NCBI GenBank assembly: GCA_034716235.1
Contig: JAYEHH010000037.1
Span: 566 to 64,565 of the forward strand
DNA length: 64,000 bases
Reading direction: 5' to 3'
DNA from: Patescibacteria group bacterium
Lineage (GTDB): Bacteria > Patescibacteriota > Minisyncoccia > CAIUEV01 > JAHKAQ01
The notes beneath the pieces were generated by a model. That model was not told the origin of the DNA, ran no database searches, and saw only the letters and a list, made by a program, of their open reading frames with translations. Shown in pieces: positions 279 to 59,945 of the stretch (its first letter is position 1; each line of letters begins with the position of its first letter). The translations under genes and the position numbers were made by a program.

Positions 279-725
279 ATGATTAAAAAATATTCCCCCG
301 ATCCTAAATTTGATAATGTTTTAGTTGGACGCTTAATAGGTCAACTAATGAAAAAGGGTAAAAAATCAAAAGCTCAGGACATTATCTATGGTTGCTTTGA
401 TATTATAAATGAAAAAAGTAAGCAGGACCCGCTAGATGTTTTTGATGAAGCGGTAAAAAATGTGACTCCGTCTCTTGAAGTTAGAGCAAAAAGAGTAGGA
501 GGTGCTAATTACCAAGTACCCGTGCCGGTTATGGGGGAAAGAAGAATGACTTTAACTTTGCGTTGGATTCTTGATGCCGCTAGAGCTAAAAAGGGTAAAA
601 TTATGGCTGAAAAACTGGCTTCAGAAATTATGGATGCTTCTAATAAACAAGGTACAGCGGTTAAAAAAAGAGAAGATGTGCATAGAATGGCTGAGGCTAA
701 TAAGGCCTTTGCTCATTTCGCTTAA
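279..725 (+). CDS. rpsG: 30S ribosomal protein S7
   Basis: 148 aa with an S7-like N-terminus ([24 protein letters not shown]); lies between rpsL and fusA. Confidence 0.93.
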
Positions 726-763
726 AACTACAAAAATTATAATTTTTTGTTCTTGCTGTGTAT

Positions 764-962
764 GTCACCCCCGCGAAAGCGGGGGTCCCGAGCAAATTTA
801 GGAAAAACTAACTTGGCAAAGCCTTGTCTAGACGTACCGGGATTCCCGCTTTCGCGGGAATGACAGAATGGGAATGACAGTGAAAAATAGGAGTAGTAGA
901 CCAATTCTCCATTCTCCATTCTCCATTATCAATTCTCAATTATCAATTATCAATTATCAATC
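764..962. repeat. Composite intergenic repeat (GC-rich hairpin module A plus TTATCAA/TTCTCCA heptamer array), left arm flanking fusA
   Basis: gtcacccccgcgaaagcgggggtcccgagcaaatttagg...gtctagacgtaccgggattcccgctttcgcgggaatgacag, then ccattctccattctccattatcaattctcaattatcaattatcaatc directly abutting the fusA ATG. Related copies occur at more than 10 other loci. Confidence 0.75.
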
Positions 963-3092
963 ATGCCTCGTAAATATCCTCTAGAAAAAACAAGAAATAT
1001 TGGCATTATCGCCCATATTGATGCTGGTAAAACAACCGTAACCGAACGGATTCTTTTCTATACGGGGATTTCTCACAAGATTGGAGAGGTTCATGAAGGT
1101 GAAGCAATTATGGATTGGATGGAGCAGGAGCGAGAAAGAGGCATCACTATTACTTCGGCAGCTACCACCTGTTTTTGGTCTCCGTCTGTCTTTGACGAGG
1201 AAGGTCAAGTAAAAGCCGGCAAAAAAGAATATGCCATTAATATTATTGACACTCCAGGGCATGTAGATTTCACAGTTGAAGTAGAGCGTTCTCTACGAGT
1301 TTTAGATGGAGGAGTAGTTATTTTTGATGGGAAAATGGGAGTAGAGCCCCAGTCGGAAACGGTTTGGAGACAAGCAGATAAATATAAAGTGCCTCGCATT
1401 TGTTTTGTTAATAAAATCAATCAAACGGGAGGTGATTTTTATATGAGTCTAGAATCTATTCAAAGCAGATTAAGTCCTAAAGCGGTAGCCATTACTTTGC
1501 CGATTGGAAGTGAACAGGATTTAAAAGGACTTATTGATTTAGTTGAAATGCAGGCTTATGTTTTTACCGATGATGAACATACAATTCTTCAAAAAACTGA
1601 GATTGATAAAGATATGCAAGAAAAAGCTCAGCAATATCATGATCAATTAGTAGAGAAAGTGGCTGAGACTGATGATAAATTATTAGAAGTTTTTTTGGAA
1701 GATGGTAAAATTTCTCCAGCAGAATTAAAATATGCTATTCGGAAAGCTACTTTAACCAGTAAACTATTTCCAGTTATTGGAGGTGATGGAAGAACCGTTA
1801 TTGTGACAAAACTATTAGATTATGTTTTGGATTATCTTCCTAGCCCATTGGATGTACCTGCCGTTGAAGGAGATGATCCTAAATTAGAAACTAAAATTAC
1901 TCGCAAAACGAACGATGAAGAAAGTTTTTCAGCTCTAGCTTTTAAAATTGCCACCGACCCCTTCGTGGGAACTCTTTGTTTTCTGCGGGTTTACTCGGGA
2001 GTTTTAAAAGTTGGAAGTTATATTCTAAACGCTACTAAGGACGAAAAAGAAAGAGTAGGCAGAATTGTTAGAATGCACTCCAACAAGAGAGAAGAAGTAG
2101 AAGAAGTATATGCCGGAGAAATTGCTGCTATTGTTGGTTTGAAAAATACTACTACCGGAGATACCCTTTGTGATGTAAACAACCCTATAATTTTAGAAAA
2201 AATTACCTTCCCAGAACCAGTAATTTCAGTAGCAGTTGAACCTAAAACTAAAGCTGATCAAGAAAAAATGGGTCTGGCTCTCAAGAAATTAGCTCAAGAA
2301 GACCCAACTTTTCAAATAAGGACTGATGAGGAAACTCTAGAGACTATCATTTCCGGTATGGGAGAGTTACATTTGGAAGTTTTGATAGATAGGATGAAAC
2401 GAGAATTTAAAGTGGGAGCTAATATTGGTAAACCTAGAGTGGCCTACAAAGAAGCCATAGCCACAGAAACAGAAGTTGAAGAAAAATATATTCGTCAAAC
2501 CGGTGGACGCGGTCAGTATGGCCATGTTTTATTAAAACTAGAACCTCAAGAAGCCGGTAAAGGATGTGAATTTGTGAATGCCATAAGGGGAGGACGTATT
2601 CCTCAAGAATTTATTCCGGCAGTAGAAAAAGGGATTAAGGGAGCTATGGAAAGTGGAGTGATTGCTGGTTACCCAGTAGTTGATACAAAAGTTACTTTAT
2701 TTGATGGGTCATATCACGAAGTAGATTCTTCAGAAGCAGCTTTTAAAATTGCTGGCTCTAAAGCTTTTAAGAGAGGCTTTAAGGCCGCTAAACCTTATTT
2801 GCTAGAACCAATAATGAAAGTAGAAGTGGTTACTCCAGAACAATTTATGGGAGATGTGGTTGGAGATTTAAGTTCTAGACGAGGAATCGTTGGTAATATG
2901 GAAGATCGGGGTGAAGACAGTGTGTCCGTTAAAGTCATTGCAGCTAATGTGCCGTTATCATCTATGTTTGGATATGCCACCGCCTTGCGTTCTTTAAGCC
3001 AAGGGAGATCTAACTATTCAATGGAATTTAGCCATTATGAAAAAATCCCGGCTAATATTGCAGAAGAAATTATGGGCAAAGAGGAAGAATAA
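963..3092 (+). CDS. fusA: Translation elongation factor G
   Basis: 709 aa; G1 motif AHIDAGKTT and a full EF-G domain set by similarity to canonical EF-G (e.g. DTPGHVDF). Confidence 0.97.
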
Positions 3093-3272
3093 ATGGATAA
3101 TGGATAATTCACAATGCCACCCAAAGGCTGGTCACCCTCTGGGTGAGATAATGGAGAATTGATAATTTCCCTGTCATTCCCGCGAAAGCGGGAATCCCGG
3201 TACGTCTAGGCAAAACTTTGTCAAAATGATTTTCCTAAATTTGCTCGGGACCCTTGCTAGCACGGGGGTGGT
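3093..3272. repeat. Composite intergenic repeat, right arm flanking fusA, inverted relative to 764-962
   Basis: atggataatggataattcac (heptamers), ccaaaggctggtcaccctctgggtga (module B hairpin), ctgtcattcccgcgaaagcgggaatcccggtacgtctaggcaaaactttgtcaaaatgattttcctaaatttgctcgggaccc (module A). This is the reverse complement of the 764-880 element at roughly 85-90% identity. Confidence 0.75.
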
Positions 3273-3293
3273 ACATACATCAGGGGCGAAAAA

Positions 3294-3321
3294 TCTATAA
3301 TCTATAATCTATAATCTATAA
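3294..3321. repeat. Tandem heptamer TCTATAA x4 (each unit contains TATAAT)
   Basis: tctataatctataatctataatctataa immediately upstream of the HD-hydrolase gene. Confidence 0.6.
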
Positions 3322-3329
3322 TTTTCGAA

Positions 3330-3902
3330 GTGAATCCTTTTAAAATAATAAACAAATACTACAATGCTGATTCGGAGGAGTACCAAACATTGGTGCTTCA
3401 TTCAGTCATGGTAGCCAAAAAAGCATTAGAAATTGTTAGCCAACTAACAATCAGTCAATCTATTGCAGAAAATGTTTCCAGAGAATTTATTTATGAAGCT
3501 GCTATGTTGCATGACATTGGATTTAAATTTCCCGGAGAATTAAAAAACAAAACCGAGCTTGCCTCTCAATATCTCACCCATGGTTATTATGGTGCTGAAA
3601 TTTTAAGAAAAGAAGGACTTCCTCAGCATGCTCAAGTGGCTGAAAATCATGTTGGAGTAGGCTTAACTAGACAAGAAATTGAAAATAACAAATGGCCAAT
3701 GCCTCCAAAAGATTATTTTCCTCAAACAATTGAAGAAAAAATTATATCCTATGCGGATTTATTTTATTCAAAAAGTTATAAAACTTCGCCAGGTTTTTTT
3801 AAGGAAAGAACCATGGAAGAGGTTATTGAAAAGATAAAAAAATACCAAAATGGGAGTGAAAAAATCAAAGTTTTTCGAGAATGGGATAAGATTTTTACTT
3901 AA
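3330..3902 (+). CDS. HD-domain phosphohydrolase (YqeK-like size), inserted between fusA and tuf
   Basis: 190 aa with an H...HD signature (LHSVMVAKKA ... AAMLHDIGF) typical of the HD superfamily. Confidence 0.6.
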   Translation: MNPFKIINKYYNADSEEYQTLVLHSVMVAKKALEIVSQLTISQSIAENVSREFIYEAAMLHDIGFKFPGELKNKTELASQYLTHGYYGAEILRKEGLPQHAQVAENHVGVGLTRQEIENNKWPMPPKDYFPQTIEEKIISYADLFYSKSYKTSPGFFKERTMEEVIEKIKKYQNGSEKIKVFREWDKIFT

Positions 3903-4006
3903 TATTTAAGGATTACTTGACTTTAAGTTAAAATTCCGCTAATTATTAACTAATGTATTGCAACAATTACTAAATTATTAATAAGTCTAAGTTTAATAAA
4001 ATAATT

Positions 4007-5859: not shown

Positions 5860-6411
5860 ATGTTTATAATCGGTAAAAAATTGAATATGTCGCAGGTTTG
5901 GGACGATAAGAATAGAATTATCCCCATAACTAAACTAAAGTGTACTCCCAGTAAACTGGTAGGTTTTAAGACAGTGGAAAAAGATGGCTATCAAGCTATA
6001 ATCATTAATTGTGAAGGAATTACTAAAGAATTCAAGCTATCTTCAAAAGTGAAAAATGATTTAAAACAAGGAGCTGAAATAACCGTAAGTTCTTTTGCTC
6101 CAGGAGATCGAGTGAAAATTACCGGTAAAAGTAAGGGGAAAGGATTTCAGGGAGTTGTTAAAAGGCATGGTTTTAAAGGAGGAGGAGCTACTCATGGTCA
6201 TCGGCACGATTTAAGACAAGGTGGTTCAATTGGTTCAGCTTATCCTCAACATGTTATGAAAGGAAAAAAAATGGCCGGTAGAATGGGGAGCGATAAAATT
6301 TCTATCAGCAGGGCTTTAGTGGTCAAAGTAGATGAGAAGGAAAATATTTTAATGGTTAGAGGAGCCATACCGGGTAGAAGAGGCGGAATAGTATTTATTA
6401 GTAAACGATAA
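5860..6411 (+). CDS. rplC: 50S ribosomal protein L3
   Basis: IIGKKLNMSQVWDD... is an L3 N-terminus; RBS aaggaataaataaagg lies upstream. An unusual 176-nt gap separates it from rpsJ. Confidence 0.95.
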   Translation: MFIIGKKLNMSQVWDDKNRIIPITKLKCTPSKLVGFKTVEKDGYQAIIINCEGITKEFKLSSKVKNDLKQGAEITVSSFAPGDRVKITGKSKGKGFQGVVKRHGFKGGGATHGHRHDLRQGGSIGSAYPQHVMKGKKMAGRMGSDKISISRALVVKVDEKENILMVRGAIPGRRGGIVFISKR

Positions 6412-6422
6412 TTATTTTTTTA

Positions 6423-7076
6423 ATGCAACAACCAATTTATAATTTAGACGCCAGCAAACAAGGGGAACTAAAATTAGCTCCCGCAGTGTTTGACGTTCCT
6501 ATGAATTATGATTTGGTTCACAGAGTAGCAGTTTCACTTTCCTCTAACAGAAGACGACCGATAGCTCATACTAAAACTAAAGGAGAAGTCCGCGGTGGAG
6601 GTAAAAAACCATGGAGTCAAAAAGGAACTGGAAATGCACGGGCAGGGTCAATCCGAAGCCCAATTTTTAAAGGTGGTGGAGTTACTTTTGGTCCAAGAAA
6701 CGAAGTGAATTTTCAGAAAAAGATTAATAAGAAAGAACGTAAGAAAGCCTTTGTAGAAGTGCTTTCTAGCAAACTAAGAGATGGTGAGCTTAAAATTATT
6801 GAAAGTTTTAAATTGGAAACACCCAAGACCAAAAAGTTAGCTGATTTATTTAAAAAATTAGGGACTGAGGGTAAATCTGGTCTGGTGGTTACCTTGGAAA
6901 ATAACGATCAGGTAAAGAAATCGTTGGCCAATTTACCAAGGATTAGTTTTGCCCAGGCAGCCAATATTTGCTCATTAGATTTATTGAATTACAAGTTTCT
7001 ATATTTAGAGAAAGCAGTAGTGGGGTATTATGAAAAGAAATACGCTACCGTAGAGGTAAAAAAGAGTAAAAAGTAA
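6423..7076 (+). CDS. rplD: 50S ribosomal protein L4
   Basis: KGEVRGGGKKPWSQKGTGNARAGSIRSP motif. Confidence 0.95.
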   Translation: MQQPIYNLDASKQGELKLAPAVFDVPMNYDLVHRVAVSLSSNRRRPIAHTKTKGEVRGGGKKPWSQKGTGNARAGSIRSPIFKGGGVTFGPRNEVNFQKKINKKERKKAFVEVLSSKLRDGELKIIESFKLETPKTKKLADLFKKLGTEGKSGLVVTLENNDQVKKSLANLPRISFAQAANICSLDLLNYKFLYLEKAVVGYYEKKYATVEVKKSKK

Positions 7077-10608: not shown

Positions 10609-11026
10609 GAAAACACCGTCAAAAAAATTGGTTAATGACTTGGAAACAAAACCGGTAAAAGCTGGTAAGACAAATCCTGTTTCTAAATCCAAGAAAGTTT
10701 TAGCTAAAAAAAAGACTAAAGCTAAATTGGAATACAAGCGGCCTAAATTGAAATTTGAAAGAATCAATACGGATCCATCAGAAAAGAAAGTTGAGATTAA
10801 GAAAAAAATTCAAGGTGTGGTTGTTTCAGATAAAATGGATAAAACGGTGGTAGTTTCTGTGGTTGGGATTAAGGTTCATTCTAAATACCACAAAAGGTAT
10901 AAAAGGAACAAGCGTTATAAAGTCCATGATCCAGAGAATAAATATAAGATTGGGGATGAAGTGGTATTTTCACCATCTAAGCCTTATAGTAAAGGGAAGA
11001 AGTGGGAGGTAGTAGAAAGTTCATAA
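10598..11026 (+). CDS. rpsQ: 30S ribosomal protein S17 (Lys-rich N-terminal extension)
   Basis: GVVVSDKMDKTVVVSVVGIKVHSKYHKRYKRNKRYKVHDPEN core. Confidence 0.9.
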   Translation: MISKKTPSKKLVNDLETKPVKAGKTNPVSKSKKVLAKKKTKAKLEYKRPKLKFERINTDPSEKKVEIKKKIQGVVVSDKMDKTVVVSVVGIKVHSKYHKRYKRNKRYKVHDPENKYKIGDEVVFSPSKPYSKGKKWEVVESS

Positions 11027-11044
11027 AGTTATAAAGTTATAAAG

Positions 11045-15062: not shown

Positions 15063-15150
15063 CCAGTATAAAGTAGAAAGTTCATAAAGTTGAAAGTAGG
15101 AACTTGATAACTTTACAAACTTTACAAACTTTTTACTTTACAAACTTGAC
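15063..15150. repeat. Tandem/palindromic array of AAAGTT/AACTTTACA units
   Basis: agtagaaagttcataaagttgaaagtaggaacttgataactttacaaactttacaaactttttactttacaaacttgacaacc; the same unit family occurs at 11023-11044, 17041-17060, 51047-51125, 52300-52365 and 54103-54125. Confidence 0.6.
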
Positions 15151-15158
15151 AACCTTCC

Positions 15159-16910: not shown

Positions 16911-17065
16911 AGGAAATTTTAAAGATTTGTTCTTATTTTATAATTTTAGCTTACTTTTCGTCAAAGGAAAACACAGAAAACTGTCTTTGTTTAATTTATT
17001 TTTTCGATTGTTTTAATAAGTGGAGGAGTAGGGTAGATACAGGTTTGTAAAGTTATAAAGTGACT

Positions 17066-17093
17066 TGTCATTCCCGCGAAAGCGGGAATCCCG
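17066..17093. repeat. Module A hairpin repeat core (GTCATTCCCGCGAAAGCGGGAATCCCGG), left flank of the GIY-YIG gene
   Basis: Exact 28-nt core shared with 3171-3200; cccgc-gaaa-gcggg hairpin. Confidence 0.8.
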
Positions 17094-17120
17094 GGAAGCT
17101 ATAGAATCAAACATTAAATC

Positions 17121-17444
17121 ATGAATAAAAACTATTACGTTTATATTGTAACCAATAATAAGAATAGTACTTTCTATATAGGTATCACTAACAATTTAGA
17201 ACGACGTGTCTATGGACATAAACAAGGGATAGTTAAAGGATTTACTAAACAGTATAATCTCAATAAATTAGTATATTTTGAAGAAACAGGAAATGTTATA
17301 TCTGCAATCTCAAGAGAGAAATGTTTAAAAAAATGGAATAGAAAGTGGAAGGTAGAACTTATTGAGAAAGAGAATCCAAAATGGGAAGATTTAACAAACA
17401 AGTTTCTTCTAAAGCATATCGAGATTCCCGCTTCGCTTGTCTAA
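17121..17444 (+). CDS. Small GIY-YIG nuclease domain protein
   Basis: 107 aa; YYVYIVTNNKNSTFYIGITNNLERRVYGH is a textbook GIY-YIG motif; flanked by inverted copies of the module A repeat. Confidence 0.75.
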   Translation: MNKNYYVYIVTNNKNSTFYIGITNNLERRVYGHKQGIVKGFTKQYNLNKLVYFEETGNVISAISREKCLKKWNRKWKVELIEKENPKWEDLTNKFLLKHIEIPASLV

Positions 17445-17514
17445 TGACAGGCAGGTGCCAAGGATAACAAAAGAATAGATTTCTTAATTGAAAATTATTA
17501 TAATGTTTTTAAAA

Positions 17515-17548
17515 CGTACCGGGATTCCCGCTTTCGCGGGAATGACAG
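17515..17548. repeat. Module A repeat core, inverted copy, right flank of GIY-YIG; contains the ATG of the downstream gene
   Basis: cgtaccgggattcccgctttcgcgggaatgacag is the reverse complement of the 17066-17093 core; its terminal gaATGACAG supplies the start codon at 17542. Confidence 0.8.
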
Positions 17549-19812
17549 CAAATTTAACAACCTTCTTAACCTTCATAACTCTCACCCTCTTTTTCTTTCT
17601 CTTCCCTTTCTCCGTCAGAGCAACGGCGATTGATATTACGGAAAATACAACTTGGAATGAAGATCAAGTAGTGGAGGATAGGGTTATTGTCATGGGAGGA
17701 GCAACTTTAACCATTGAACCGGGAGTCCAAATTAAATTTAAGCCAGGAGGTAATTTAAGAATCTATGGAGATTTAATAGTGGAAGGAGAAAAGAATCAAC
17801 CGGTAATTTTCTTTAGAGAAAAACCTAAGCCAGAGGAAGAAAGGTGGATGTATTATTTAACCTTTGGAGCCGATTCTAATTCTGTCATCAAACATGCAAT
17901 CATTAAAGAGGCTGGTGGTTATTCTGACTCAGGCTCTCGAATGCCGGGAATGAAAATTAGGGGTAATTTAGAAATTTACGACAGTTTAATCACTCAAAAT
18001 TATTGGGCATTAGAAGTGAGAGACGATGGGCATTTAAAAATGAGAAATTCTGATATTTATGATAATCATACAACTTGGGGCGTAGAAGTATTGGGTCATT
18101 CTGCCGCCGCCGATATTGTTGATAATTATTGGGGAGATAATTCAGGCCCCTTTCATTCTTCTTTTAATAAATTGGCTACAGGAGAAAGAATCAATGGAGG
18201 CAATCTTGAATTTACACCCTGGGAAACAAGAGGTAAGAAGCCAATCATTCTAATCCCTGGATTTGGAGAATCTTTAAATTTCGGAAAGTTTTTTCAGAAT
18301 CAAGTAGGGAGATGGTGGCTTTTCCCGCCTACCAAATCAACCTCAGCCTTAAAAACTTTGCTAGAGGATGCTGGCTATGAAGATGAAGTAGATTTATTTG
18401 TTGGTTTTTATGACTGGCGGAAATCAATTCATCAAAATGCGACGGATTATTTAAAGCCAATTATAAATTTGGCTAAAGAAAAATCTGGTTTTAAAGAGGT
18501 GGACATTGTTGCTTTTAGTTTCGGTGGGCTTGTTTCCAGAAGCTATGTCCAAGGGAATTCTTTTGGGTTTGATGTAAATAATTTAATAACTTTAGGGACT
18601 CCCCATCAAGGAATTTCAAAAATTTACACTTTTGCAGCAGGCGGTCAGTTGCCAGCTGGCTGGAACCCCTTACTTTACATTTATCTCTGGTATGAACAAA
18701 TAGAGGAAGGTCAATCTGCCTTGGGTTATATCCAAAATTATTTACCATCCGTTTATGAGATAATGCCCACCTATGATTTCTTAAAAATGTCAGGGAGCTT
18801 GATTAATCATCAAGAAATGTCTATCACCAATAATATTTTGCAAGAGTTAAATAATGGAATTGGAGATTTACAAAATAGGGTAGATGCATTCTTTGTCGGA
18901 GGGACCGATCAACTAACCTTAGACAATATTCCAGTAAGACCACATCTACCAAACGATGGAGCATTTTGGCTGGACGGAGCTCCTGACCCAGCAAGACCAG
19001 TACCCAACAGTACTGAAGGAGATGCGACGGTCCTTACCAAAAGTGCTATTTGGGGAGTAGAAGATATTAAAAGCACTTTAATCCAGAGCCAGCATGAAGA
19101 TTTACCGTTAGAAGCAAAAACAGAAATTGAGAATATTTTAGACATTGATTTAGGAGAAACAAACTTTGATTTTAATTATTCGGAGGATTATCTTATTTTT
19201 TGCTTAGCTTCTCCTTTGGAAGTGGAAATCGTGGATCAGGCAGGGCATAGGCTTTCTCGGGAAATAAATGAAATTGAAAATGCTTATTTTTATGAAGAAG
19301 ATCCGTTGGGAAAAAAAATAATTTTAATTTATAATCCGGATACTGAATATTCAATGGAGGTTTCCGGGTTGGCGAACAGTGATTATAGAATTTTAGCAAT
19401 GTCAGCTGATGCTAATAGTGAAATAGTTTCTGCTGAAATTTCTGCAGAGATTGCTCTAGGAGAAAATGTTGAATATTGGGCAAGAAGAGTGGTGACTGAT
19501 ACCGAGGGAAATGAGCAGGGGGATGCGAATGAGTTAAAAATTGAAATTTATGAGAAAATCGTAGCTGACTATAAAGTGCTTGTTGGTCGAGTAAAAGATT
19601 TTTATAAAACTGGATTTTTGAAAAGTTGGGAGGTCAGACAGGAACTTTTAGAAAGAATACTGGCTAGCTATAATTTTTCAAAGAGAGATCAATTAGAAGA
19701 AGAGGGATTAATGATTGAAGATATAAAAGCAAAGGTTATTGAACTAGAAGTAAATGAGCTACTTGATTCCTCGAGTTCCCAATTGTTACTAGATGCCCTA
19801 GATGAGTTCTAA
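17542..19812 (+). CDS. Secreted protein: N-terminal signal peptide, right-handed parallel beta-helix repeats, LCAT/PGAP1-like alpha/beta-hydrolase (phospholipase/lipase) domain
   Basis: Signal peptide MTANLTTFLTFITLTLFFFLFPFSVRA; beta-helix-like repeats (NSDIYDNHTTWGVEV...); hallmark FYDWRKS and AFSFGG (A-x-S-x-G-G nucleophile elbow). Start reassigned from the TTG at 17488 to the ATG at 17542. Confidence 0.6.
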   Translation: MTANLTTFLTFITLTLFFFLFPFSVRATAIDITENTTWNEDQVVEDRVIVMGGATLTIEPGVQIKFKPGGNLRIYGDLIVEGEKNQPVIFFREKPKPEEERWMYYLTFGADSNSVIKHAIIKEAGGYSDSGSRMPGMKIRGNLEIYDSLITQNYWALEVRDDGHLKMRNSDIYDNHTTWGVEVLGHSAAADIVDNYWGDNSGPFHSSFNKLATGERINGGNLEFTPWETRGKKPIILIPGFGESLNFGKFFQNQVGRWWLFPPTKSTSALKTLLEDAGYEDEVDLFVGFYDWRKSIHQNATDYLKPIINLAKEKSGFKEVDIVAFSFGGLVSRSYVQGNSFGFDVNNLITLGTPHQGISKIYTFAAGGQLPAGWNPLLYIYLWYEQIEEGQSALGYIQNYLPSVYEIMPTYDFLKMSGSLINHQEMSITNNILQELNNGIGDLQNRVDAFFVGGTDQLTLDNIPVRPHLPNDGAFWLDGAPDPARPVPNSTEGDATVLTKSAIWGVEDIKSTLIQSQHEDLPLEAKTEIENILDIDLGETNFDFNYSEDYLIFCLASPLEVEIVDQAGHRLSREINEIENAYFYEEDPLGKKIILIYNPDTEYSMEVSGLANSDYRILAMSADANSEIVSAEISAEIALGENVEYWARRVVTDTEGNEQGDANELKIEIYEKIVADYKVLVGRVKDFYKTGFLKSWEVRQELLERILASYNFSKRDQLEEEGLMIEDIKAKVIELEVNELLDSSSSQLLLDALDEF

Positions 19813-23129: not shown

Positions 23130-23186
23130 GGGTATCTAGATAAATTTTAAATTTTCAAATAAAATCGTTTGTCTTTGTTGGATGGG

Positions 23187-23253
23187 TCATTCCCGCCTTT
23201 ACAGGAATGACATATCTGTCAGTGAATTATCTAACTTTTACAGGAATGACAGG
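23187..23253. repeat. Degenerate module A-like repeat pair (GTCATTCCCGCCTTTACAGGAATGACA ... TTTTACAGGAATGACAGG)
   Basis: Same GTCATTCC...GGAATGAC termini as module A with an altered loop. Confidence 0.55.
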
Positions 23254-34331: not shown

Positions 34332-34332
34332 G

Positions 34333-34477
34333 AGTTTGTAAAGTTTAGGTAATGGATAATGGACGATGGAGAATTGACAATTGATAATGAATAATGCCAG
34401 CCTCTGGCTGGCGATTCCTTACCAAATTAGTTTCTCCTAAATTTGCTCGGGACCCCCGCCTACGCGGGGGTGACAAG
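34333..34477. repeat. Composite repeat (GGATAAT heptamers, module B-like AATGCCAGCCTCTGGCTGGC, module A half AAATTTGCTCGGGACCCCCGC...GCGGGGGTGAC)
   Basis: Same module order as 3093-3272. Confidence 0.65.
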
Positions 34478-34497
34478 TCACTTTTTAACTTATATTT

Positions 34498-35352
34498 ATG
34501 TCGTCTCCTAAAATTATTGATTCCCATGCTCATTTGAATTTTTCCGACTTTGATACAGATCGGGATGCTATTTTAGACGATACTTTAGATTCAGGAACAT
34601 GGGTCATAAATGTAGGATCTAATTTTGAAACCAGTAGAAAAGCGGTTGAAATCGCTCAACGGTATTCTCAAGGGGTTTATGCAGCGGTGGGGATTCATCC
34701 CATTCATGTTTTGGACGAAGGATCTAGTAGAGAGGCGATATTAGACTTGATCCAGAATAATGAAAATGTAGTAGCTATTGGAGAAATCGGGCTGGATTAT
34801 TTTCATCTAGAAAGCGAGAAAGGAAAATTAAAGGCGAATGAAGAAGATGCTCAATTTGTAGCAGTAGTCAAGAAAAAACAACAGACATTGCTTGCTCAAC
34901 AGCTGGAATTAGTAAGGGCTGTAAATTTACCGGTTATTTTTCATTGTCGCCATTATAAAAACTACGATGCTCATTATGATATGCTGAAAGTTATAGAGAA
35001 GTTTGCCACTTTGTATCAAAATTTTAAATTGCAAGGGGTGGTACATTGTTACACGGGCAATCTACAGTTAGCTGAAATTTATTTAAGGTTGGGGCTTTAT
35101 CTTGGCTTTACTGGAGTGATTACTTTTTCTGATGATTATAATGAGATTATCAAAAAAACTCCCCTAGAAAGAATCCTTATTGAAACTGATTCTCCCTATT
35201 TATCTCCTGAGCCAAAAAGAGGAAAAAGAAATGTACCCGAAAATGTTAAATATGTTGCTGAGAAAATTGCTAAAATAAAAGGGATTAAAGTCTCTGAAGT
35301 AAGGAGCCAAACAGTGAAAAATACAAAGGAACTGTTTGGGCTAGGTAATTGA
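34498..35352 (+). CDS. tatD: TatD-family metal-dependent DNase/hydrolase
   Basis: IIDSHAHLNFSDF N-terminal motif; 284 aa with an insertion. Confidence 0.88.
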   Translation: MSSPKIIDSHAHLNFSDFDTDRDAILDDTLDSGTWVINVGSNFETSRKAVEIAQRYSQGVYAAVGIHPIHVLDEGSSREAILDLIQNNENVVAIGEIGLDYFHLESEKGKLKANEEDAQFVAVVKKKQQTLLAQQLELVRAVNLPVIFHCRHYKNYDAHYDMLKVIEKFATLYQNFKLQGVVHCYTGNLQLAEIYLRLGLYLGFTGVITFSDDYNEIIKKTPLERILIETDSPYLSPEPKRGKRNVPENVKYVAEKIAKIKGIKVSEVRSQTVKNTKELFGLGN

Positions 35353-35745
35353 CAATGGACAATTGACAATGGAGAATGCCAGCCAGAGGGTGACAATCTT
35401 TTTCCCACTGTCATTCCCGTCCCGTCATCCCAGCATTCGCGGGACAGGTCCGACGGGATAAATTCCAGCCCGCCTAAGCTCGCTAACTAATGTACCCATT
35501 ACAGTTTTGTGACACGGCGAGGCAAGCGGGAATCCCGAGCAAATTTAGGAAAGGCTAACACAACTTGTCATTCCCGCCTGCGCGGGAATGACAAATAAAA
35601 TTGTGAAGCGGGGGTGACAGTGGAGAAGCATTCCATAATTGTAAATTGCCAGCCAAAGGCTCGCATGGACACGGCGAGACTGGCTGGTTTGTCTCGCCGA
35701 AGGCTGGTCACCCTCTGGGTGAAAAATTATTTTCCCTTGTCCCCA
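35349..35745. repeat. Large composite repeat block (heptamers, module B, module C CCCGTC..CGCGGGACAGG..GACGGG, module D, module A, module B) upstream of tRNA-Leu; inverted partner at 44827-44990
   Basis: 35399-35545 is ~92% identical to the reverse complement of 44827-44986, including the unique segment gctaactaatgtacccattacagttttgtgacacggcgaggcaagcggg. Confidence 0.75.
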
Positions 35746-35819
35746 TACTTAAGAAATGATACGTTTATTGATAGAAAGCATGCTAATGGTCAGAGGTTAA
35801 TAGTTAGTAGTTGCGAAGC

Positions 35820-35903
35820 GCCGCGGTGGCGGAACTGGTAGACGCGCCAGCTTTAGGAGCTGGTGAGATTTATCTTGTGGGAGTTCAAATCTCCCCCGCG
35901 GCA
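35820..35903 (+). tRNA. tRNA-Leu (anticodon TAG), class II with long variable arm
   Basis: Acceptor GCCGCGG/CCGCGGC, D-arm GCGGAACTGGTAGACGC, anticodon stem CCAGC/GCTGG with loop TTTAGGA (TAG), variable arm TGAGATTTATCTTGT, T-arm GGGAG-TTCAAAT-CTCCC, discriminator A; CCA not encoded. Confidence 0.8.
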
Positions 35904-35907
35904 CCCT

Positions 35908-38900
35908 ATGTCTATTTTCAAAACTCACTATAAAAAACTAAATACTGGTCAGAAAAAAGCCGTTGACTCTCTTGAGGGACCAGTAATGGTAGCCGCTGGT
36001 CCTGGAACCGGTAAAACGGAAGTTTTAGCTTTGCGAATTGTTAATCTTATTCGGCAGAAAAAAGCCAACCCAGAAGAAATTTTAGCGCTTACTTTTAGTA
36101 ATAGCGCTACGGTTTCTATGCGGAGGAGAGTAACGAAATTTTTAGGAGCTCAAGCTTATAATATTGGTATTAAAACTTTCCATAGTTTTTGTAATGATGT
36201 TATTAGTCAATATCCGGACAAATTTGTACTTCTTAAAGAATTGAGCCAGTTAAATGAATTGGAATCAATAAAAATTATTAAAACTATTTTACGCAGAGGA
36301 AAATTTAAACAGTTGAAACCTTTTTACAGCCCCTACTGCCACCAAAAAGAAATTATTAGTACCATAAGTCAGCTTAAACAGGAAGGGGTTTCACCAAAAG
36401 AATTGGAGAGTGCTCTAGAAACAATGGCTCAAGATTTAGAGGACACTAAAAAGATTAATCCTAGAACAGGCAAGCCTACCGGTAAATGGCAAACTCAATA
36501 CAAGCAATGGGAAAAATTAAATGATTTGTTAAAAATTTATCAAGAATATTTAGAGAAAACTCATCGGGAGGGTTGGTATGATTTTAGCGATATGATTACC
36601 TGGGTGACGGAGAAATTAAAAGAAGACCAGGAATTAAGAAATTATTATCGTGATCAGTTCAAATATATTTTGAGTGACGAATATCAGGATACGAATATCC
36701 CCCAAAGTGAAGTTATTGAAATTTTAGGCAAACCTCAAAAAAATCCTAATATTTTTATAGTAGGAGATGATGACCAGTCAATTTATCGTTTTCAAGGGGC
36801 TAGCCTGGATAATATTATTTCTTTTGAGAAAAAATATCCGACAGCCAAAATTATTCCTCTTAATATCAATTACCGTTCTCAACAAAAAGTGGTATCTCTC
36901 TCCAAGACTTTGATTGAAAAAAATGAAGAGAGGTTAGTGAATGTTACTCAGCAGGCTATTGATAAAAATATTCAATCATTTGCCGAGAAAGAGCAAGGGG
37001 GTCAAGTTTCGCTAGCCGAATTTTCCGAATCAGCGGTGGAAGATTATTTTATTGCTCAAAAAATTAAAGAATTGCATAAAAAGGGGATTCCTTTTAAGGA
37101 GATGGCTATTATTAACAGAACTAATCAAGATGTTTCTCAAATAGCCGATTATCTTATTAAGGCGGGTATCCCGGTAGAAATGTCTAGCACCGGCTCTATT
37201 CTTGATAAAAAAGAAACTAAGGAGATTATGAGCCTGTTAGCGGTAGCCGTTACTCCCCATAGTAACGCTATTATTTATGAGGCTATGAGTTTGGAGGTTT
37301 GGGAAATTGAACCGCGAGATTTTCTAGAATTTACCTATCAAGCCGGTAAAGAGAAAATTAACTACTTTGATTTTTTCAACCGATTAGAAAGTGAGTCAGA
37401 GAAAAAATCACTAGAAAATACAACTAAATGGCAAGACTTTAAAAAGATTAAATTTTTCTTTGAGACGGTTGCTCGTTGGCATCAGGAAAGTGTATCTACG
37501 CCGGCGATTTTAATGTTAGAAAAAGTTATCAATGATTCGGGGCTCATTAAAAGTTGTCTAGAAAAAAAAGATATTAGAAAACTTAATCGAATATTCTCGC
37601 TATTTTCTTTTGTGAAAGAAAATAATCGTAAGAATCCTTTTTTAAAGTTAAAGAGCGTAATAAATGATTTAGAAATAATGCGGGAAGACAGATTAACCAT
37701 TAAAGAAAAGGAGCTTTCTATGGCAGAGGATGATGTGCGAGTTATCACAGCTCACGCCGCTAAAGGTTTAGAATTTGAAGTAGTCTTTATTCCTCGGCTG
37801 TATCAAGGTAACTGGGACGGAAAAAGAAAAAACCAAGTTATCAAAATTCCTTGGAATCTTTTAACTAGACTCAAAAGAGAAGAAAACGAATCGGCAAAAA
37901 GTGATGATGAAAGAAGACTGTTTTTTGTAGCTCTTACCCGGGCTAAAAGTCAGCTATTTTTAAGCCGAGCCGATCGTTACGATTATTTGAATAGTTCTGG
38001 GGAGAAAACTCCTTCTAGGTTTCTAGCAGAAATTGACAGCCAGTTAGTAAAAAAGTGTTCTCCTGAAAAATACGAGGATGCGACCTTAGCAAGAATGAAA
38101 ATTGAACTTAAAAAAACACCAATTGTCAAAAAGGGGAATCGGTTAAAACAGGAAACCAGTTTCTTGCGTCAAAGAGTGGAGGACTTAGCTCTGAGTCCTA
38201 CCAGTTTAAACCTTTATCTAAATTGTCCTCGTCGGTATAAATACGAGAAATTATTGATGATTCCTAGCGCTAAAAATAAAGCGGCTTCTTTGGGAACGGC
38301 TATTCATGAGGCACTAGAGAAGTTTTTTCAAGATTTCCAAAAAGATAAAAAGGTCAATCAGGCTTCTTTGATTTCCTTTTTTAGAGAGGCTGTAGCAAAG
38401 GAAGTTTTGGCTAAAAGTGATTTGGAAGATATGCTTAGGGAGGGAGAAAGACTCTTGAATGATTATTATGCAGAATACAGTCAAGATTTTGTAAAACCGG
38501 TAGAGCTAGAAATGAGTTTCGGTAAGGTTTATTTATCGGGGGCATCAGCAACCAACAAGAAAAATGAGAAGGCGGTTTTATTGACCGGTAAAATAGATAA
38601 AATTGAAAAAATTAGCCAACAGGAAAAAACTGAAAAAGGCAAAATTCCGGTCAAAGTTATTGATTACAAAACAGGAATGCCTCAAACTAAAAATCAGATT
38701 TTAGGTAATACAAAAAACTCATCTGGAGATGTTTACCGACAAATGGTTTTCTATAAGCTACTCTCTCTTTTAGATAAAAAATTTCCTTATTCAGTGACAG
38801 AAGTTGAAGTTGATTTTATTAAATCTCAAAATGGACGCTTCAGAAGAGAAAGTTTTGAAATAACTAAAGAAGAAACAGATAAATTACAAAAACAAATTAA

Positions 38901-39006
38901 CGAAGTAGTCAGAAAAATAAAAAATTTAGAATTTGGACCAACTAAAGATACCAGGAATTGCCAGCGTTGCGATTTGAAGGATCTTTGTTCCTTGGTTGAA
39001 GAATAG
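35908..39006 (+). CDS. UvrD/PcrA-family SF1 helicase fused to a C-terminal Fe-S-cluster RecB/Cas4-like PD-(D/E)XK nuclease
   Basis: Walker A AAGPGTGKT, helicase motifs (DEYQDTN, QSIYRFQGA, VITAHAAKGLEFEVVF). C-terminal GKIDKIEKI...VIDYKTG...YRQMVFYKLL (D...D/ExK...QxxxY) plus four Cys (CPRRYKY...CQRCDLKDLC). Start moved to the ATG at 35908 because the upstream GTG lies inside the tRNA. Confidence 0.8.
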   Translation: MSIFKTHYKKLNTGQKKAVDSLEGPVMVAAGPGTGKTEVLALRIVNLIRQKKANPEEILALTFSNSATVSMRRRVTKFLGAQAYNIGIKTFHSFCNDVISQYPDKFVLLKELSQLNELESIKIIKTILRRGKFKQLKPFYSPYCHQKEIISTISQLKQEGVSPKELESALETMAQDLEDTKKINPRTGKPTGKWQTQYKQWEKLNDLLKIYQEYLEKTHREGWYDFSDMITWVTEKLKEDQELRNYYRDQFKYILSDEYQDTNIPQSEVIEILGKPQKNPNIFIVGDDDQSIYRFQGASLDNIISFEKKYPTAKIIPLNINYRSQQKVVSLSKTLIEKNEERLVNVTQQAIDKNIQSFAEKEQGGQVSLAEFSESAVEDYFIAQKIKELHKKGIPFKEMAIINRTNQDVSQIADYLIKAGIPVEMSSTGSILDKKETKEIMSLLAVAVTPHSNAIIYEAMSLEVWEIEPRDFLEFTYQAGKEKINYFDFFNRLESESEKKSLENTTKWQDFKKIKFFFETVARWHQESVSTPAILMLEKVINDSGLIKSCLEKKDIRKLNRIFSLFSFVKENNRKNPFLKLKSVINDLEIMREDRLTIKEKELSMAEDDVRVITAHAAKGLEFEVVFIPRLYQGNWDGKRKNQVIKIPWNLLTRLKREENESAKSDDERRLFFVALTRAKSQLFLSRADRYDYLNSSGEKTPSRFLAEIDSQLVKKCSPEKYEDATLARMKIELKKTPIVKKGNRLKQETSFLRQRVEDLALSPTSLNLYLNCPRRYKYEKLLMIPSAKNKAASLGTAIHEALEKFFQDFQKDKKVNQASLISFFREAVAKEVLAKSDLEDMLREGERLLNDYYAEYSQDFVKPVELEMSFGKVYLSGASATNKKNEKAVLLTGKIDKIEKISQQEKTEKGKIPVKVIDYKTGMPQTKNQILGNTKNSSGDVYRQMVFYKLLSLLDKKFPYSVTEVEVDFIKSQNGRFRRESFEITKEETDKLQKQINEVVRKIKNLEFGPTKDTRNCQRCDLKDLCSLVEE

Positions 39007-39087
39007 ATTTGTCTAAATTTGCTCGGGATTGTCATCCAAGGGGTGACCAGCCCGGCACATTTAAGAAATGTTTAATTTTGTTTGGTT

Positions 39088-44456: not shown

Positions 44457-44600
44457 TTGATGGACAATGGATAATGGATGAATATCTTTTTCTAATTTTC
44501 AATTTTATTTGTCATTCCTGTAAAAGTTAGGTAATTCGTTGACAGATATGTCATTCCCGCGTAGGCGGGAATCCAGAAACTAGAATAAAATTTCTGAGAC
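44457..44600. repeat. Composite repeat (GGATAAT/GGACAAT heptamers plus module A variants GTCATTCCTGTAAAAG... and GTCATTCCCGCGTAGGCGGGAATCCAGAAACTAGAATAAAAT)
   Basis: Near-identical to 54125-54180 (gtcattcccgcgaaggcgggaatccagaaactagaataaaatta). Confidence 0.65.
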
Positions 44601-44739
44601 TAAATACAAATTAACAATTACTAGAAAGCTGACCTGTATCATTTTCTAAGTTTCATATAGCTTTACTAGAAGAAATAAGTATTATTTAAAAGTTATTTTA
44701 CTGTTACAGTAAAATAAGTGCAGTATGTTTTAGAAATCT

Positions 44740-44990
44740 GGATTCCTGCCTTCCTGCCTCACCTACCTCACGGTAGGCAGGCGGTAGGCAGGCACGGGGA
44801 ATGACAAATAAGAAAGTATTGTCTAAAACGTCTCGGGACCCCCGCTTGCCTCGCCGTGCCACAAAATTGTAATGGGTACATTAGTTAGCGAGTTTAGGCG
44901 GGCTGGAGTTTATCCCGTCGGACCTGTCCCGCGAATGCTGGGGTGACGGGGCGGGAATGACAGGGGAAAAAGCTAGTTGGCTTTGATCTT
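44740..44990. repeat. Large composite repeat block, inverted partner of 35399-35545; includes CACCTACCT-type microsatellite
   Basis: cctcacctacctcacggtaggcaggcggtaggcagg ... then the reverse complement of modules A/D/C as at 35399-35545. Its end overlaps the 3' end of rpmE. Confidence 0.75.
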
Positions 44991-50462: not shown

Positions 50463-51050
50463 ATGCAACGAATTCCTATCGAAATTTCAGCACGGCACTT
50501 ACACCTATCGCGAGCTGATACAGATATTATTTTTGGGAAAGGCTACCAATTACATGTTTTTAAAAAATTATCGCAACCAGGATCTTTTTCTACTCAAGAA
50601 ACTGTTAAAATAATTTACAAGGGAAAATCTGGGGAAAAAAGTTTAGAGAAAGTTAGAATCATTGCTCCTCTAAGAGATCATTCTCAGCTGGAGCTTGCTG
50701 GAACAGATGCTCGACGGTTAGGAGCTAAGCCTCCTATTCGTCTTAGTGGGAATATTGAGGGTACCCCTGGGTTTGAAATTGTAGGGCCAGCAGGAGCAGT
50801 GGCTAAAGAAGAAGGGATGATAATTGCCAAAAGACATTTACATGTTTCTCCTAAAGAAGCGGAGGAGTTATCCCTTAAAAACGGAAATGAAATTAAGGTT
50901 AAAGCTGGTGGAGATGGAGAACGAGAGCTTATTTTTTGCAAAGTGGTTGTGAGGGTGGCAGAAAATTTCAAATTAGCCATGCATATTGATACCGATGAAA
51001 GTAACGCCGTTGGTATGACAAGTTGTGGATATGGGGAAATAACTTTATAA
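50463..51050 (+). CDS. pduL: PduL-type phosphate acyltransferase (phosphotransacetylase/propanoyltransferase)
   Basis: Duplicated PduL motifs ISARHLHLSRAD...IFG and IAKRHLHVSPKEAEEL; the acetate kinase gene follows immediately. Confidence 0.75.
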   Translation: MQRIPIEISARHLHLSRADTDIIFGKGYQLHVFKKLSQPGSFSTQETVKIIYKGKSGEKSLEKVRIIAPLRDHSQLELAGTDARRLGAKPPIRLSGNIEGTPGFEIVGPAGAVAKEEGMIIAKRHLHVSPKEAEELSLKNGNEIKVKAGGDGERELIFCKVVVRVAENFKLAMHIDTDESNAVGMTSCGYGEITL

Positions 51051-51125
51051 CCTTATAACTTTACAACTTTACAAACTTTACAAACTTTATAAACTTTACA
51101 AATTTTATAACTTTATGAACTTTCT
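51047..51125. repeat. Tandem nonamer array CTTTACAAA (about 8 units, degenerate)
   Basis: ccttataactttacaactttacaaactttacaaactttataaactttacaaattttataactttatgaactttc between pduL and ackA. Confidence 0.7.
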
Positions 51126-52181: not shown

Positions 52182-52185
52182 AGGA

Positions 52186-52365
52186 ATTTTTTACACAGAG
52201 GGTGATCCGCCTCTGGATAATGGATAATGGATAATGGACAATTGATGATTCCACCTAGAGGGTGACCAGTCTCTGGCTGGTTGCTTAATGACAAGTTCGT
52301 AAAGATGGGACAATTCATAATTTCTTAATCACTTTATGAACTTTATGAACTTTATGAACTTTCTA
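52186..52365. repeat. Composite repeat (module B AGAGGGTGATCCGCCTCTGG, GGATAAT heptamers, module B AGAGGGTGACCAGTCTCTGGCTGG, tandem CTTTATGAA x3)
   Basis: cacagagggtgatccgcctctggataatggataatggataatggacaattgatgattccacctagagggtgaccagtctctggctggttgc...ctttatgaactttatgaactttatgaactttc. Confidence 0.65.
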
Positions 52366-52384
52366 CTTTTAAATTACATTGCTT

Positions 52385-54103: not shown

Positions 54104-54612
54104 AAGTTTATAAAGTTAGAAAGTTAAACTATTAAAGTCATTCCCGCGAAGGCGGGAATCCAGAAACTAGAATAAAATTATCATTGATAAATAATGGATG
54201 GTGATTATCAAAAACACTAGCCTACATAAATTTACTAGAAGAAATAAATATTGTTAAGAATTGGCTTATTGTTATAATGAAATAAAATTGGTGCATTCTA
54301 AATTTCTAGATTCCCGTCCGGCATCCCAGCATCCGCGGGACAGGTTCGCCGGATTGCACTTCCCTACCTCACCTACCTCACCTACCTCACGGCAGACAAG
54401 TGGCAGACAAGTGGCAGACAGGCGCGGGGAATGACAGGGGAAAAAGGCTGACTGGCTTGTCTCGCCGAAGGCTCGCCTAAACTCGGTGAGGCTAGAGGAG
54501 ATCCCGAGCAAATTTAGAAAAAAACTAATTTGGCAAGGCTCTGCCTAGACGTACCGGGATTCCCGCTTTCGCGGGAATGACAGGAATGCAACTTTACAAA
54601 CTTTTAACTATT
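54103..54612. repeat. Composite repeat block (AAAGTT units, module A, module C, CACCTACCT x3 and GGCAGACAAGT x3 microsatellites, module A)
   Basis: gtcattcccgcgaaggcgggaatccagaaactagaataaaatta; cccgtccggcatcccagcatccgcgggacaggttcgccgg; cctcacctacctcacctacctcacggcagacaagtggcagacaagtggcagaca; ...gtctagacgtaccgggattcccgctttcgcgggaatgacagg (near-identical to 828-866). Confidence 0.7.
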
Positions 54613-54616
54613 TATT

Positions 54617-58566: not shown

Positions 58567-58917
58567 ATGTTGAGGTATAGAAATTTTAAGGTCTATAAAG
58601 ACGCAAAAGATTTTCATAAATTAACGGTTAAACTAGCTTCTCAATTTTCTGGAGGCTTCAATTATTTAAGTAACCAGATCCGGAGAAGTTCACTATCGGT
58701 TGTACTGAATATTGCCGAGGGATCGGCAAAGGGTTCAGATAAAGATTTTAATTGTTATTTAAAAAACTCATTGGGCTCAATGAGTGAAACTTTAGCAGGA
58801 TTTGAAATTGCTTTAGAGTTTCAATTAATTTCTCTTTCAGATTTTGAAAATATTGAGGCTAAGGCTAAAAGTATTATTAAACAACTGGGAGGTTTTTCAA
58901 AAAAGTTAAAAGGTTAA
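58567..58917 (+). CDS. Four-helix-bundle 'rRNA intervening-sequence (IVS) protein' encoded inside the first 16S insertion
   Basis: 116 aa. KDAKDFHKLTVKLASQF...SNQIRRSSLSVVLNIAEGSAKGSDKDFNCYLKNSLGSMSETLAGFEIA matches the family normally found in 23S IVS elements (RRS/A-x-SI/V-x-NIAEG; ...GS..E...L). Confidence 0.7.
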   Translation: MLRYRNFKVYKDAKDFHKLTVKLASQFSGGFNYLSNQIRRSSLSVVLNIAEGSAKGSDKDFNCYLKNSLGSMSETLAGFEIALEFQLISLSDFENIEAKAKSIIKQLGGFSKKLKG

Positions 58918-59068
58918 TAGTTAGAAGTTGGTAGTTGCGTAGCGGCAAACGGGTTAGTAACACGTGAGAATCTACCCTAAAGTTTGGAATAACTCGGAGA
59001 AATCCGAGATAATACCAAATATGTTCTTCGGAGTAAAGCCTTCGGGCGCTTTAGGAGGAGCTCGCGTA

Positions 59069-59105
<37 letters not shown>

Positions 59106-59165
59106 TATGACGGTTAGGGAGCGTGAGAGCGTGATTCCCAACATTGGCACTGAAACACTGGCCAA

Positions 59166-59196
<31 letters not shown>

Positions 59197-59763: not shown

Positions 59764-59795
<32 letters not shown>

Positions 59796-59914
59796 AGACG
59801 GGGATCCGCACAAGCGGTGGAGCGTCCGGTTTAATTCGATAATAAGCGTGGAACCTTACCAGGACTTGACATCCCACGATAGCTTTAGAAATAAAGTTTC
59901 CTTCGGGCGTGGTG

Positions 59915-59945
<31 letters not shown>

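Follow-up and report, generated by a model that had tools for sequence, protein, structure and literature searches.

Hairpin repeats beside fusA as probable copies of a dispersed SRM family with a cognate Ssn nuclease gene in a Patescibacteria contig

In a 64-kb stretch of a Patescibacteria contig (JAYEHH010000037.1; the whole stretch is called the window below, with GC ~35% and 86.5% coding), fusA, the gene of elongation factor G (EF-G), lies between two inverted copies of a GC-rich repeat. These flanks are very probably (at about 0.85 by our estimate) independent copies of a dispersed mosaic family of hairpins of the Ssn-related motif (SRM), the targets of the ssDNA nuclease Ssn, and not a device specific to fusA. 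Judged from sequence, the window repeats are SRMs of an Ssn system, a class that includes the NTS/dRS3 repeats of Neisseria, and the key to this identification is a cognate GIY-YIG gene at 17121-17444. The identity of the motif, the identity of the gene, the association of the two and the insertion polymorphism between species are established in this analysis.

The published account of Ssn was found because the hairpins resemble the Neisseria dRS3 repeat. Chenal et al. (2025, Nat Commun 16:2388; PMC11893778) defined the Neisseria NTS (CGTCATTCCCGCGMAVGCGGGAATCYRG) and the broader SRM, and reported that SRMs flank small single-domain GIY-YIG genes (Ssn, cd10448) across phyla. In that study, SsnA bound the hairpin only as single-stranded DNA (ssDNA), cut the same strand a few nucleotides upstream and showed no action on RNA, and Ssn lowered transformation by NTS-gene-NTS DNA in N. 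meningitidis. The idea that the GIY-YIG/hairpin unit of the window was possibly new was dropped, the system being already described there.

The inverted repeats on either side of fusA

The operon runs rpsL-rpsG-fusA-HD-tuf on the + strand, followed by ribosomal protein genes, and the rpsG-fusA and fusA-HD spacers are both 237 nt long, with one GC-rich island each. The features of this locus are as follows.

726-962, rpsG-fusA spacer (237 nt): AT-rich lead-in, then SRM hairpin doublet A, then a heptamer array
763-866, + strand, doublet A: two inverted SRM hairpins with heads (TGTCA) outward and a 47-nt spacer holding the reverse complement of AAATTTGCTCGGGA
763-790, + strand, SRM hairpin, GGGGG-stem variant: TGTCACCCCCGCGAAAGCGGGGGTCCCG; matches the published SRM pattern; -10.8 kcal/mol as ssDNA, z-score (z) -4.35
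838-865, - strand, SRM hairpin: TGTCATTCCCGCGAAAGCGGGAATCCCG; the same sequence stands at both ends of the ssn unit
902-961, - strand, heptamer tandem array (CAATTAT/CCATTCT read on the + strand): period 7, 8.6 copies, ending 1 nt before the fusA ATG at 963
963-3092, + strand, fusA: EF-G of 709 aa, with Pfam GTP_EFTU, EFG_III, EFG_IV and EFG_C
3092-3166, + strand, heptamer arrays: AATGGAT at 3092-3108 and GATAATGGAGAATTGATAAT at 3147-3166
3117-3146, palindromic module CCACCCAAAGGCTGGTCACCCTCTGGGTGA, interrupting the arrays of 3092-3166
3171-3272, - strand, doublet B: inverted copy of doublet A
3292-3322, + strand, AATCTAT heptamer array: 4.4 copies, running up to the GTG with which the HD-domain gene starts
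3330 (GTG start), + strand, HD-domain gene: downstream of fusA

An earlier note on this DNA, made from the sequence alone, had described inverted GC-rich copies on the two sides of fusA, and these are present: the islands 763-866 and 3171-3272 are identical at 88 of 104 positions in a multiple alignment of the core elements, and the longest identical run between doublets A and B is 39 nt, CTAGACGTACCGGGATTCCCGCTTTCGCGGGAATGACAG. Inverted arms of 72 nt (795-866/3171-3242) and 65 nt (742-806/3230-3294) are 83% and 78% complementary, respectively. Motifs that the note had placed in the flanks were located at both islands, the hairpin motif CCCGCGAAAGCGGG at 769-784, 844-859 and 3178-3193, and AAATTTGCTCGGGACCC at 783-799 (- strand) and 3237-3253 (+ strand). 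The doublet hairpins, 28 nt each, follow the consensus TGTCA(C/T)(C/T)CCCGCGAAAGCGGG(G/A)(G/A)TCCCG, and the 47-nt spacer between them holds the motifs AAATTTGCTCGGGA and CTAGACGTACC. Doublet A as a whole folds at -29.9 kcal/mol as ssDNA (z -6.3). The inner SRM of doublet B (3172-3199, + strand) is intact; its outer SRM (~3243-3272) is decayed and has lost its folding (ssDNA z +0.65).

The heptamer arrays do abut the fusA start and stop as had been noted, the array at 902-961 ending 1 nt before the ATG and that at 3092-3108 starting on the last base of the stop codon, and these arrays between the islands and fusA are mutually inverted too. The note had found it unexpected that an essential gene should lie exactly between repeats. 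This surprise does not last, since members of this repeat class are usually arranged as repeat-gene-repeat (PMC11893778).

The junction is not an assembly artefact, because an independent assembly (Logan SRR26901924, L185) has the identical rpsG-to-hairpin junction; its contig ends inside the hairpin, which is a typical effect of repeats. Exact-sequence look-ups of the window Ssn and EF-G found no record, and that of rpsG found one short contig. The closest EF-G matches are all from metagenome-assembled genomes (MAGs) of Patescibacteria/Candidate Phyla Radiation (CPR).

The dispersed hairpin family and its ssn gene

The hairpin doublet family is not peculiar to fusA, full or partial copies being present in nine or more other spacers. 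The family is built from a directional hairpin of 28 nt, TGTCAT-TCCCGC-GAAA-GCGGGA-ATCCCG, with a head (TGTCAT), an 8-bp GC stem, a GAAA loop and a tail (ATCCCG). The hairpin core has 12 matches in the window versus 0.22 expected from shuffles. The published SRM pattern, HGTCWYN(0-2)YYVSBRHN(0-5)WNVSBRGN(0-2)RNCYNB (PMC11893778), has nine matches, whereas 100 dinucleotide shuffles have 0.07 on average and 2 at most; this corresponds to about one strict SRM per 7 kb of the window, the published systems being marked by copy numbers in the hundreds per genome. All of these SRM matches lie in spacers, in both orientations; three are in the fusA flanks (763, 838 and 3172) and another two enclose the GIY-YIG gene. 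Eight of the nine copies have the tag TGTC and one has AGTC. As ssDNA, the hairpins have folding energies of -9 to -10.8 kcal/mol, with z between -3.0 and -4.4. The SRM at 54136-54163 matches the Neisseria NTS at 27 of 28 positions.

The GIY-YIG gene itself is bracketed by two such hairpins.

17066-17547, + strand, SRM-ssn-SRM unit: SRM(+) 17066-17093, ssn 17121-17444, SRM(-) 17520-17547
17121-17444, + strand, ssn: 107 aa, with GIY-YIG as the only domain (Pfam E 1.1e-16); 14 kb from fusA

The outer ends of the unit (17066-17094 and 17520-17548) form a perfect 29-nt inverted complement, and a degenerate inner SRM(-) at ~17420-17450 overlaps the 3' end of the ssn open reading frame (ORF). The window Ssn is 48% identical, over 85 aa without gaps, to the Neisseria SsnA ortholog (pairwise E 5e-32). 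A tblastn search with it found a single homolog in one N. gonorrhoeae chromosome (E 5e-22; the homology criterion of the Ssn study is E < 1e-10). This homolog is 94 aa long, has NTS repeats around it and carries Y6/Y17/E64, the residues mutated in the SsnA study, with which Y8/Y19/E66 of the window Ssn align, at positions that are invariant or near-invariant. The N. gonorrhoeae records NZ_CP119140.1 and NZ_CP119142.1 (PLSDB), through which the Neisseria ssnA locus was reached, are ~2.17 Mb long, chromosome-sized yet filed as plasmids. A PDB sequence search with Ssn gave only weak UPF0213 matches (1zg2, 1ywl), the WD40 matches among the PDB results being spurious products of a KxWNR word, so that the PDB contains no structure of an Ssn; NCBIfam offered no informative model for Ssn.

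The association of gene and hairpin was also surveyed in 75 metagenomic homolog loci with enough flank. By a strict criterion, 44 of the 75 have an inverted repeat with the gene between its arms, and most of the other loci have TGTCAT-stem-loop-stem-ATCCAG arms whose stems differ between the two arms. The SRM pattern occurs on at least one side in 49/75 and on both sides in 24/75; the corresponding figures of the Ssn study for the association of ssn with hairpins are 71% and 42% (PMC11893778). The heads point outward, as upstream SRMs are in + orientation in 27 of 33 cases and downstream SRMs in - orientation in 50 of 54. Among these loci there are 24 distinct perfect stems, in which pairing is kept by many compensating stem variants.

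The hairpins also leave traces in predicted proteins. SRM(-) 17520-17547 overlaps the 5' end of an ORF of 756-774 aa (alpha/beta-hydrolase-like; window 17503-17560), of which the ATG at 17542, inside GGGAATGACA, would start the signal-peptide-like MTANLTTFLTFITLTLFFF, and the earlier ATG at 17503 would read the hairpin as the peptide IPAFAGMT. Similar hairpin-derived tails are seen on homologs, e.g., P0003, P0015 and P0031.

The further members of the family in the window are mosaics of SRMs, doublet parts and longer inserts.

34419-34475, - strand, half doublet D: SRM(-) 34448-34475; upstream of tatD; 52/58 identical to doublet A
35400-35596, + strand, composite downstream of tatD: SRM-like hairpin with ~110 nt in its loop, doublet spacer E and palindromic end TGTCATTCCCGCCTGCGCGGGAATGACA
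39006-39031, + strand, doublet spacer fragment TCTAAATTTGCTCGGGA: directly after the stop of an AddA-like gene
44549-44971, + strand, SRM-opened element: SRM(+) 44549-44576, at the start of a ~270-nt AT-rich-core element with a long GC stem at its far end, then an inverted 149-nt module
54136-54584, + strand, recJ-rnhA spacer mosaic: SRM(+) 54136-54163, a ~300-nt element with CCTACCTCA and GGCAGACAAGT micro-arrays, then doublet C
54480-54584, doublet C: SRM(-) at 54555-54582

A partial or full doublet also lies at 35510-35596, and a further doublet fragment at 23186-23251. Two AT-rich-core elements of ~270-300 nt, 44549-44816 and 54136-54437, are bounded by SRM hairpins. The 149-nt module is present in two inverted copies, 35400-35548 and 44823-44971, which are 91% identical; it has the head TGTCATTCCCG and the tail GCGGGAATCCCGAG, and from its sequence it looks like an SRM with ~110 nt inserted in the loop, a nested variant hairpin among them.

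A second gene, tatD (34498-35352), has inverted partial copies on its two sides. Besides EF-G, the genes between SRM-bearing spacers (34332-39031 and 52182-54616) encode a TatD DNase, an AddA-like UvrD/PD-(D/E)XK helicase-nuclease and RecJ; an RNase H gene adjoins that of RecJ, and a release-factor gene also has SRM modules upstream. This sample is too small to judge a preference of SRM bracketing for DNA-metabolism genes.

Independent insertion and competing accounts of the fusA flanks

The two fusA copies are not each other's nearest kin, as other copies in the window resemble each of them equally well or better: in the shared right part, doublets A and C agree at 75/82 positions versus 72/81 for A and B, and in the left half A and D agree at 52/58 versus 45/58 for A and B. 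Comparison of the fusA flanks in relatives, which the earlier note had named as a check, gives a concordant result. In the nearest relative (L001, 80% EF-G identity) the order rpsG-fusA-HD is kept, the two spacers measure 87 and 17 nt, and neither contains an SRM. The next relative (L043, 73% EF-G identity) has a 275-nt element at 6184-6458, directly after fusA and bounded by CCCGGG-stem SRMs, and two others carry an NTS-like hairpin 57 nt past the fusA stop (L009) and an SRM ~190 nt before fusA (L024). Thus, one relative is without the repeats and three have different SRMs. The L043 spacer before fusA holds a ~120-nt near-perfect palindrome (3800-3925), and small palindromic elements seem to be tolerated beside fusA in this clade. 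All four non-coding SRM matches in 80 fusA loci adjoin fusA. A fusA insertion "hot spot" was considered and set aside as only suggestive, the fusA-adjacent spacers making up 14-53% of spacer length and being enlarged by the insertions themselves.

Among the possibilities raised at the outset, independent insertions resembling MITEs (miniature transposable elements with inverted repeats) at operon punctuation sites are therefore supported: the family is dispersed, the fusA copies are not closest kin, L001 is empty and the other relatives carry other SRMs. By homology with SsnA, the window Ssn would recognise TGTCAT-type hairpins and bind them in ssDNA only, cutting the bound strand a few nucleotides 5' of the head; beside fusA, the predicted cuts fall at ~760 and ~3169 (top strand) and at ~868 (bottom strand). 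The doublets and larger elements may have spread as non-autonomous derivatives of, or through, the SRM-ssn-SRM unit, a propagation of the kind that the Ssn authors themselves hypothesise by analogy with RAYT/REP (PMC11893778). On this reading each insertion arrived independently in one of the few roomy spacers that the conserved operon offers, and their inverted orientation around fusA, with a prior of one half, would be incidental. A likely consequence would be cutting of ssDNA at gene boundaries, e.g., of incoming transforming strands; as a by-product, the doublets would form strong hairpins in the str-operon transcript.

Several observations weigh against this reading or limit it. First, the strict Neisseria NTS consensus has 0 matches in the window, and the fusA SRMs differ from the NTS at base 1 (T for C) and in the tail (CCCG for CYRG); because the strict consensus fails and the SRM pattern matches, the window repeats are SRMs, and not NTS in the narrow sense. 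Second, SRM-bearing spacers are consecutive somewhat more often than by chance (p ~0.015-0.1 depending on the null), so their placement may not be wholly random, although consecutive spacers fit the gene-clustered layout described in Neisseria. Third, a by-eye reading of the element ends saw no target-site duplication, and the heptamer arrays within the ~230-nt inverted flanks belong to no described SRM. Fourth, mobilisation of SRMs by Ssn is not demonstrated in the Ssn study (PMC11893778), one cut per strand is insufficient by itself to explain transposition, and the activity of the window Ssn and of its Patescibacteria homologs is a prediction from homology with SsnA.

The earlier note had also proposed that the flanks are structured untranslated regions that base-pair across the mRNA. 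Such pairing is predicted by RNAcofold, with -249.5 kcal/mol for 726-962 and 3093-3329 together versus -145.9 kcal/mol separately, i.e., a gain of -103.6 kcal/mol with 149 intermolecular pairs, and the equal length of the two spacers, 237 nt, would suit a selected long-range 5'/3' regulation of fusA through its mRNA or as DNA. What does not stand is specificity for fusA. Any inverted repeat gives such a cofold result, and the pairing is not confined to these two flanks: with copies in other spacers, to which each of the two is as close as to its partner or closer, they gain -51.0 and -67.1 kcal/mol. In addition, the outer hairpin of doublet B is decayed, and local folding of doublet A, the 5' copy, competes. 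Because the repeats are missing in the closest relative and replaced by different elements in others, a fusA-specific long-range interaction finds no support, and we regard it as very improbable.

RNA-level roles have been proposed for REP, BIME and Correia elements. The main action of the doublets could likewise be in RNA, where local structures would punctuate the str operon: hairpins for processing or stabilisation, or attenuators, between rpsG, fusA and HD. The operon is co-oriented and the elements lie in its spacers, the RNA of doublet A alone folds at -56.2 kcal/mol, and the CGTC/GTAG REPs are reported to be transcribed and mostly located downstream of coding regions (PMC3733652). However, both orientations occur among the copies, the nearest relative lacks them beside fusA, and SsnA is inactive on RNA (PMC11893778). 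The terminator/promoter scan found no terminator-like site at the elements, and its promoter-like matches in the heptamer array were discarded as products of the array periodicity. Rfam 15 has no family for the elements either, whether scanned at the gathering or at a permissive threshold, the best match in 700-3400 reaching 25 bits versus a gathering score of 66. A mainly RNA-level function is thus unlikely, if the least unlikely of these alternatives, and an RNA-level role is compatible with independent SRM insertion as a side effect.

A further possibility was that recombination between the inverted copies turns fusA round or moves it, the gene being an invertible segment or part of a cassette like a composite transposon. 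With 85% identity over 104 nt and an identical run of 39 nt, the copies could serve recombination, and a composite element has the same repeat-gene-repeat outline. However, the rpsG-fusA-HD synteny is ancestral (L001), and therefore fusA was not brought in, and inversion would turn an essential gene antisense within its operon; the single independent contig has the same junction. We consider this account, too, to have little chance of being right.

Finally, the reading as independent SRM insertions could be extended to genome-wide marking of gene boundaries, in which doublets and oriented arrays in consecutive spacers would bracket single genes (EF-G, TatD, AddA-like, RecJ), Ssn would cut ssDNA, taken up or exposed, into gene-sized pieces, and the doublets would replicate in a REPIN-like manner by an Ssn-dependent route. 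This extension is speculative, and we think it distinctly unlikely as a whole.

Companion arrays, related systems and significance

Much of the inverted flanks, namely the lineage-specific tandem arrays and a companion palindrome, is outside the SRM explanation. Heptamer arrays (AATGGAT/AATTGAT/AATGGAG and variants) stand directly at gene ends at 902-961, 3092-3166, 34350-34396, 35347-35378, 44460-44479 and 52214-52246; five follow stop codons, with AATGGAT reading in the gene's own sense, and two precede start codons (of fusA and of the release-factor gene on the - strand) in the opposite sense. Nonamer arrays of the AACTTTACA type stand directly before start codons at 15101-15156, 51039-51123, 52331-52362 and 54589-54615, and arrays of the reverse type follow stop codons or lie outside SRM heads at 11006-11044, 15065-15099, 17032-17061 and 54091-54128. 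Because nonamer arrays flank them in opposite senses, several spacers and the ssn unit are nested inverted structures; at the ssn unit, 17041-17109 and 17504-17572 are 75% complementary. A search of 184 other loci found neither heptamer nor nonamer arrays. Another palindromic module, CCAGCC-N3-5-GGCTGG and TCACCC-TCT-GGGTGA, is located at heptamer array ends (3114-3147, 34397-34420, 35377-35398, 35649-35722 and 52195-52280) and also flanks the closest Ssn homologs in other metagenome contigs (L081-L093); it could be a companion site or a REP-like family of its own.

Elsewhere in the window, the Rfam scan matched only a 16S rRNA gene, complete at 58832-60309, and one tRNA. No 23S or 5S match was found anywhere in the window, including the 3.7 kb downstream of the 16S gene, and the rRNA genes appear unlinked.

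Four described systems can be compared with these repeats. The published Ssn/SRM pairs (PMC11893778) share with the window the GTCAT head, GC stem, short loop and ATCC tail, as well as the match to the SRM pattern; the ~100-aa single-domain GIY-YIG gene flanked by hairpins, here with 48% identity to the Neisseria ortholog; and repeats that lie in spacers, clustered around genes, with inverted pairs ~105 nt apart as beside Neisseria ssnA (L184, 405-509). We note three differences. First, the host of the window is a 35% GC Patescibacteria MAG, from a group not mentioned in PMC11893778. Second, the window head is TGTC and not CGTC, the tail is CCCG, and there is a GGGGG-stem sub-variant. Third, the window repeats are joined to the lineage-specific heptamer and nonamer arrays and to the CCAGCC/GGCTGG palindrome.

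The CGTC-tagged REPs, of which CGTC-1 is dRS3, form mosaics as well (Di Nocera et al. 2013, PMC3733652): they are short GC-rich palindromes with a conserved tag at one end, mostly dimers, in mosaic clusters in Neisseria and Wolbachia. However, their tag is CGTC, versus TGTC/AGTC here, and no dedicated enzyme was found for them in PMC3733652. REP/REPIN-RAYT systems likewise combine a hairpin-flanked single gene with inverted doublets dispersed in spacers, and an enzyme that recognises the ssDNA hairpin and cuts beside a conserved tag, an analogy that the Ssn authors draw. In contrast, the window gene encodes a GIY-YIG protein and not an HUH/Y1 (IS200/IS605-like) tyrosine transposase, and the tag is TGTCAT, not GTAG; Ssn is not known to carry out strand transfer. 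Correia/NEMIS MITEs, which are 100-300 nt long, non-coding, located next to genes and co-transcribed, with terminal inverted repeats, are similar in outline, whereas the window elements end in self-complementary hairpins, show no target-site duplication by eye and are associated with a gene that encodes no DDE transposase.

Searches of the literature for GIY-YIG in connection with REP, MITE, REPIN, YhbQ or hairpins gave nothing relevant, and no paper on Ssn/SRM in Patescibacteria was found. What is new is the Ssn/SRM pairing in Patescibacteria; otherwise the system is as published. The flanks give no pointer to a new mechanism of fusA regulation. For annotation, the repeats account for GC-rich islands, contig breaks and spurious "IPAFAGMT"-type peptide tails in such MAGs. 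To a family proposed as ssDNA tools, the window also adds a new natural pair of enzyme and motif, in which the heads are of the TGTCAT type and the stem has two variants. The Ssn/SRM pairing is extended to the CPR, a lineage regarded as naturally competent, with very small genomes, and thought to need DNA uptake via ComEC and pili (PMC12455944). For recombination in the CPR, a nuclease cleaving incoming ssDNA at gene boundaries marked in this way could thus be of consequence.

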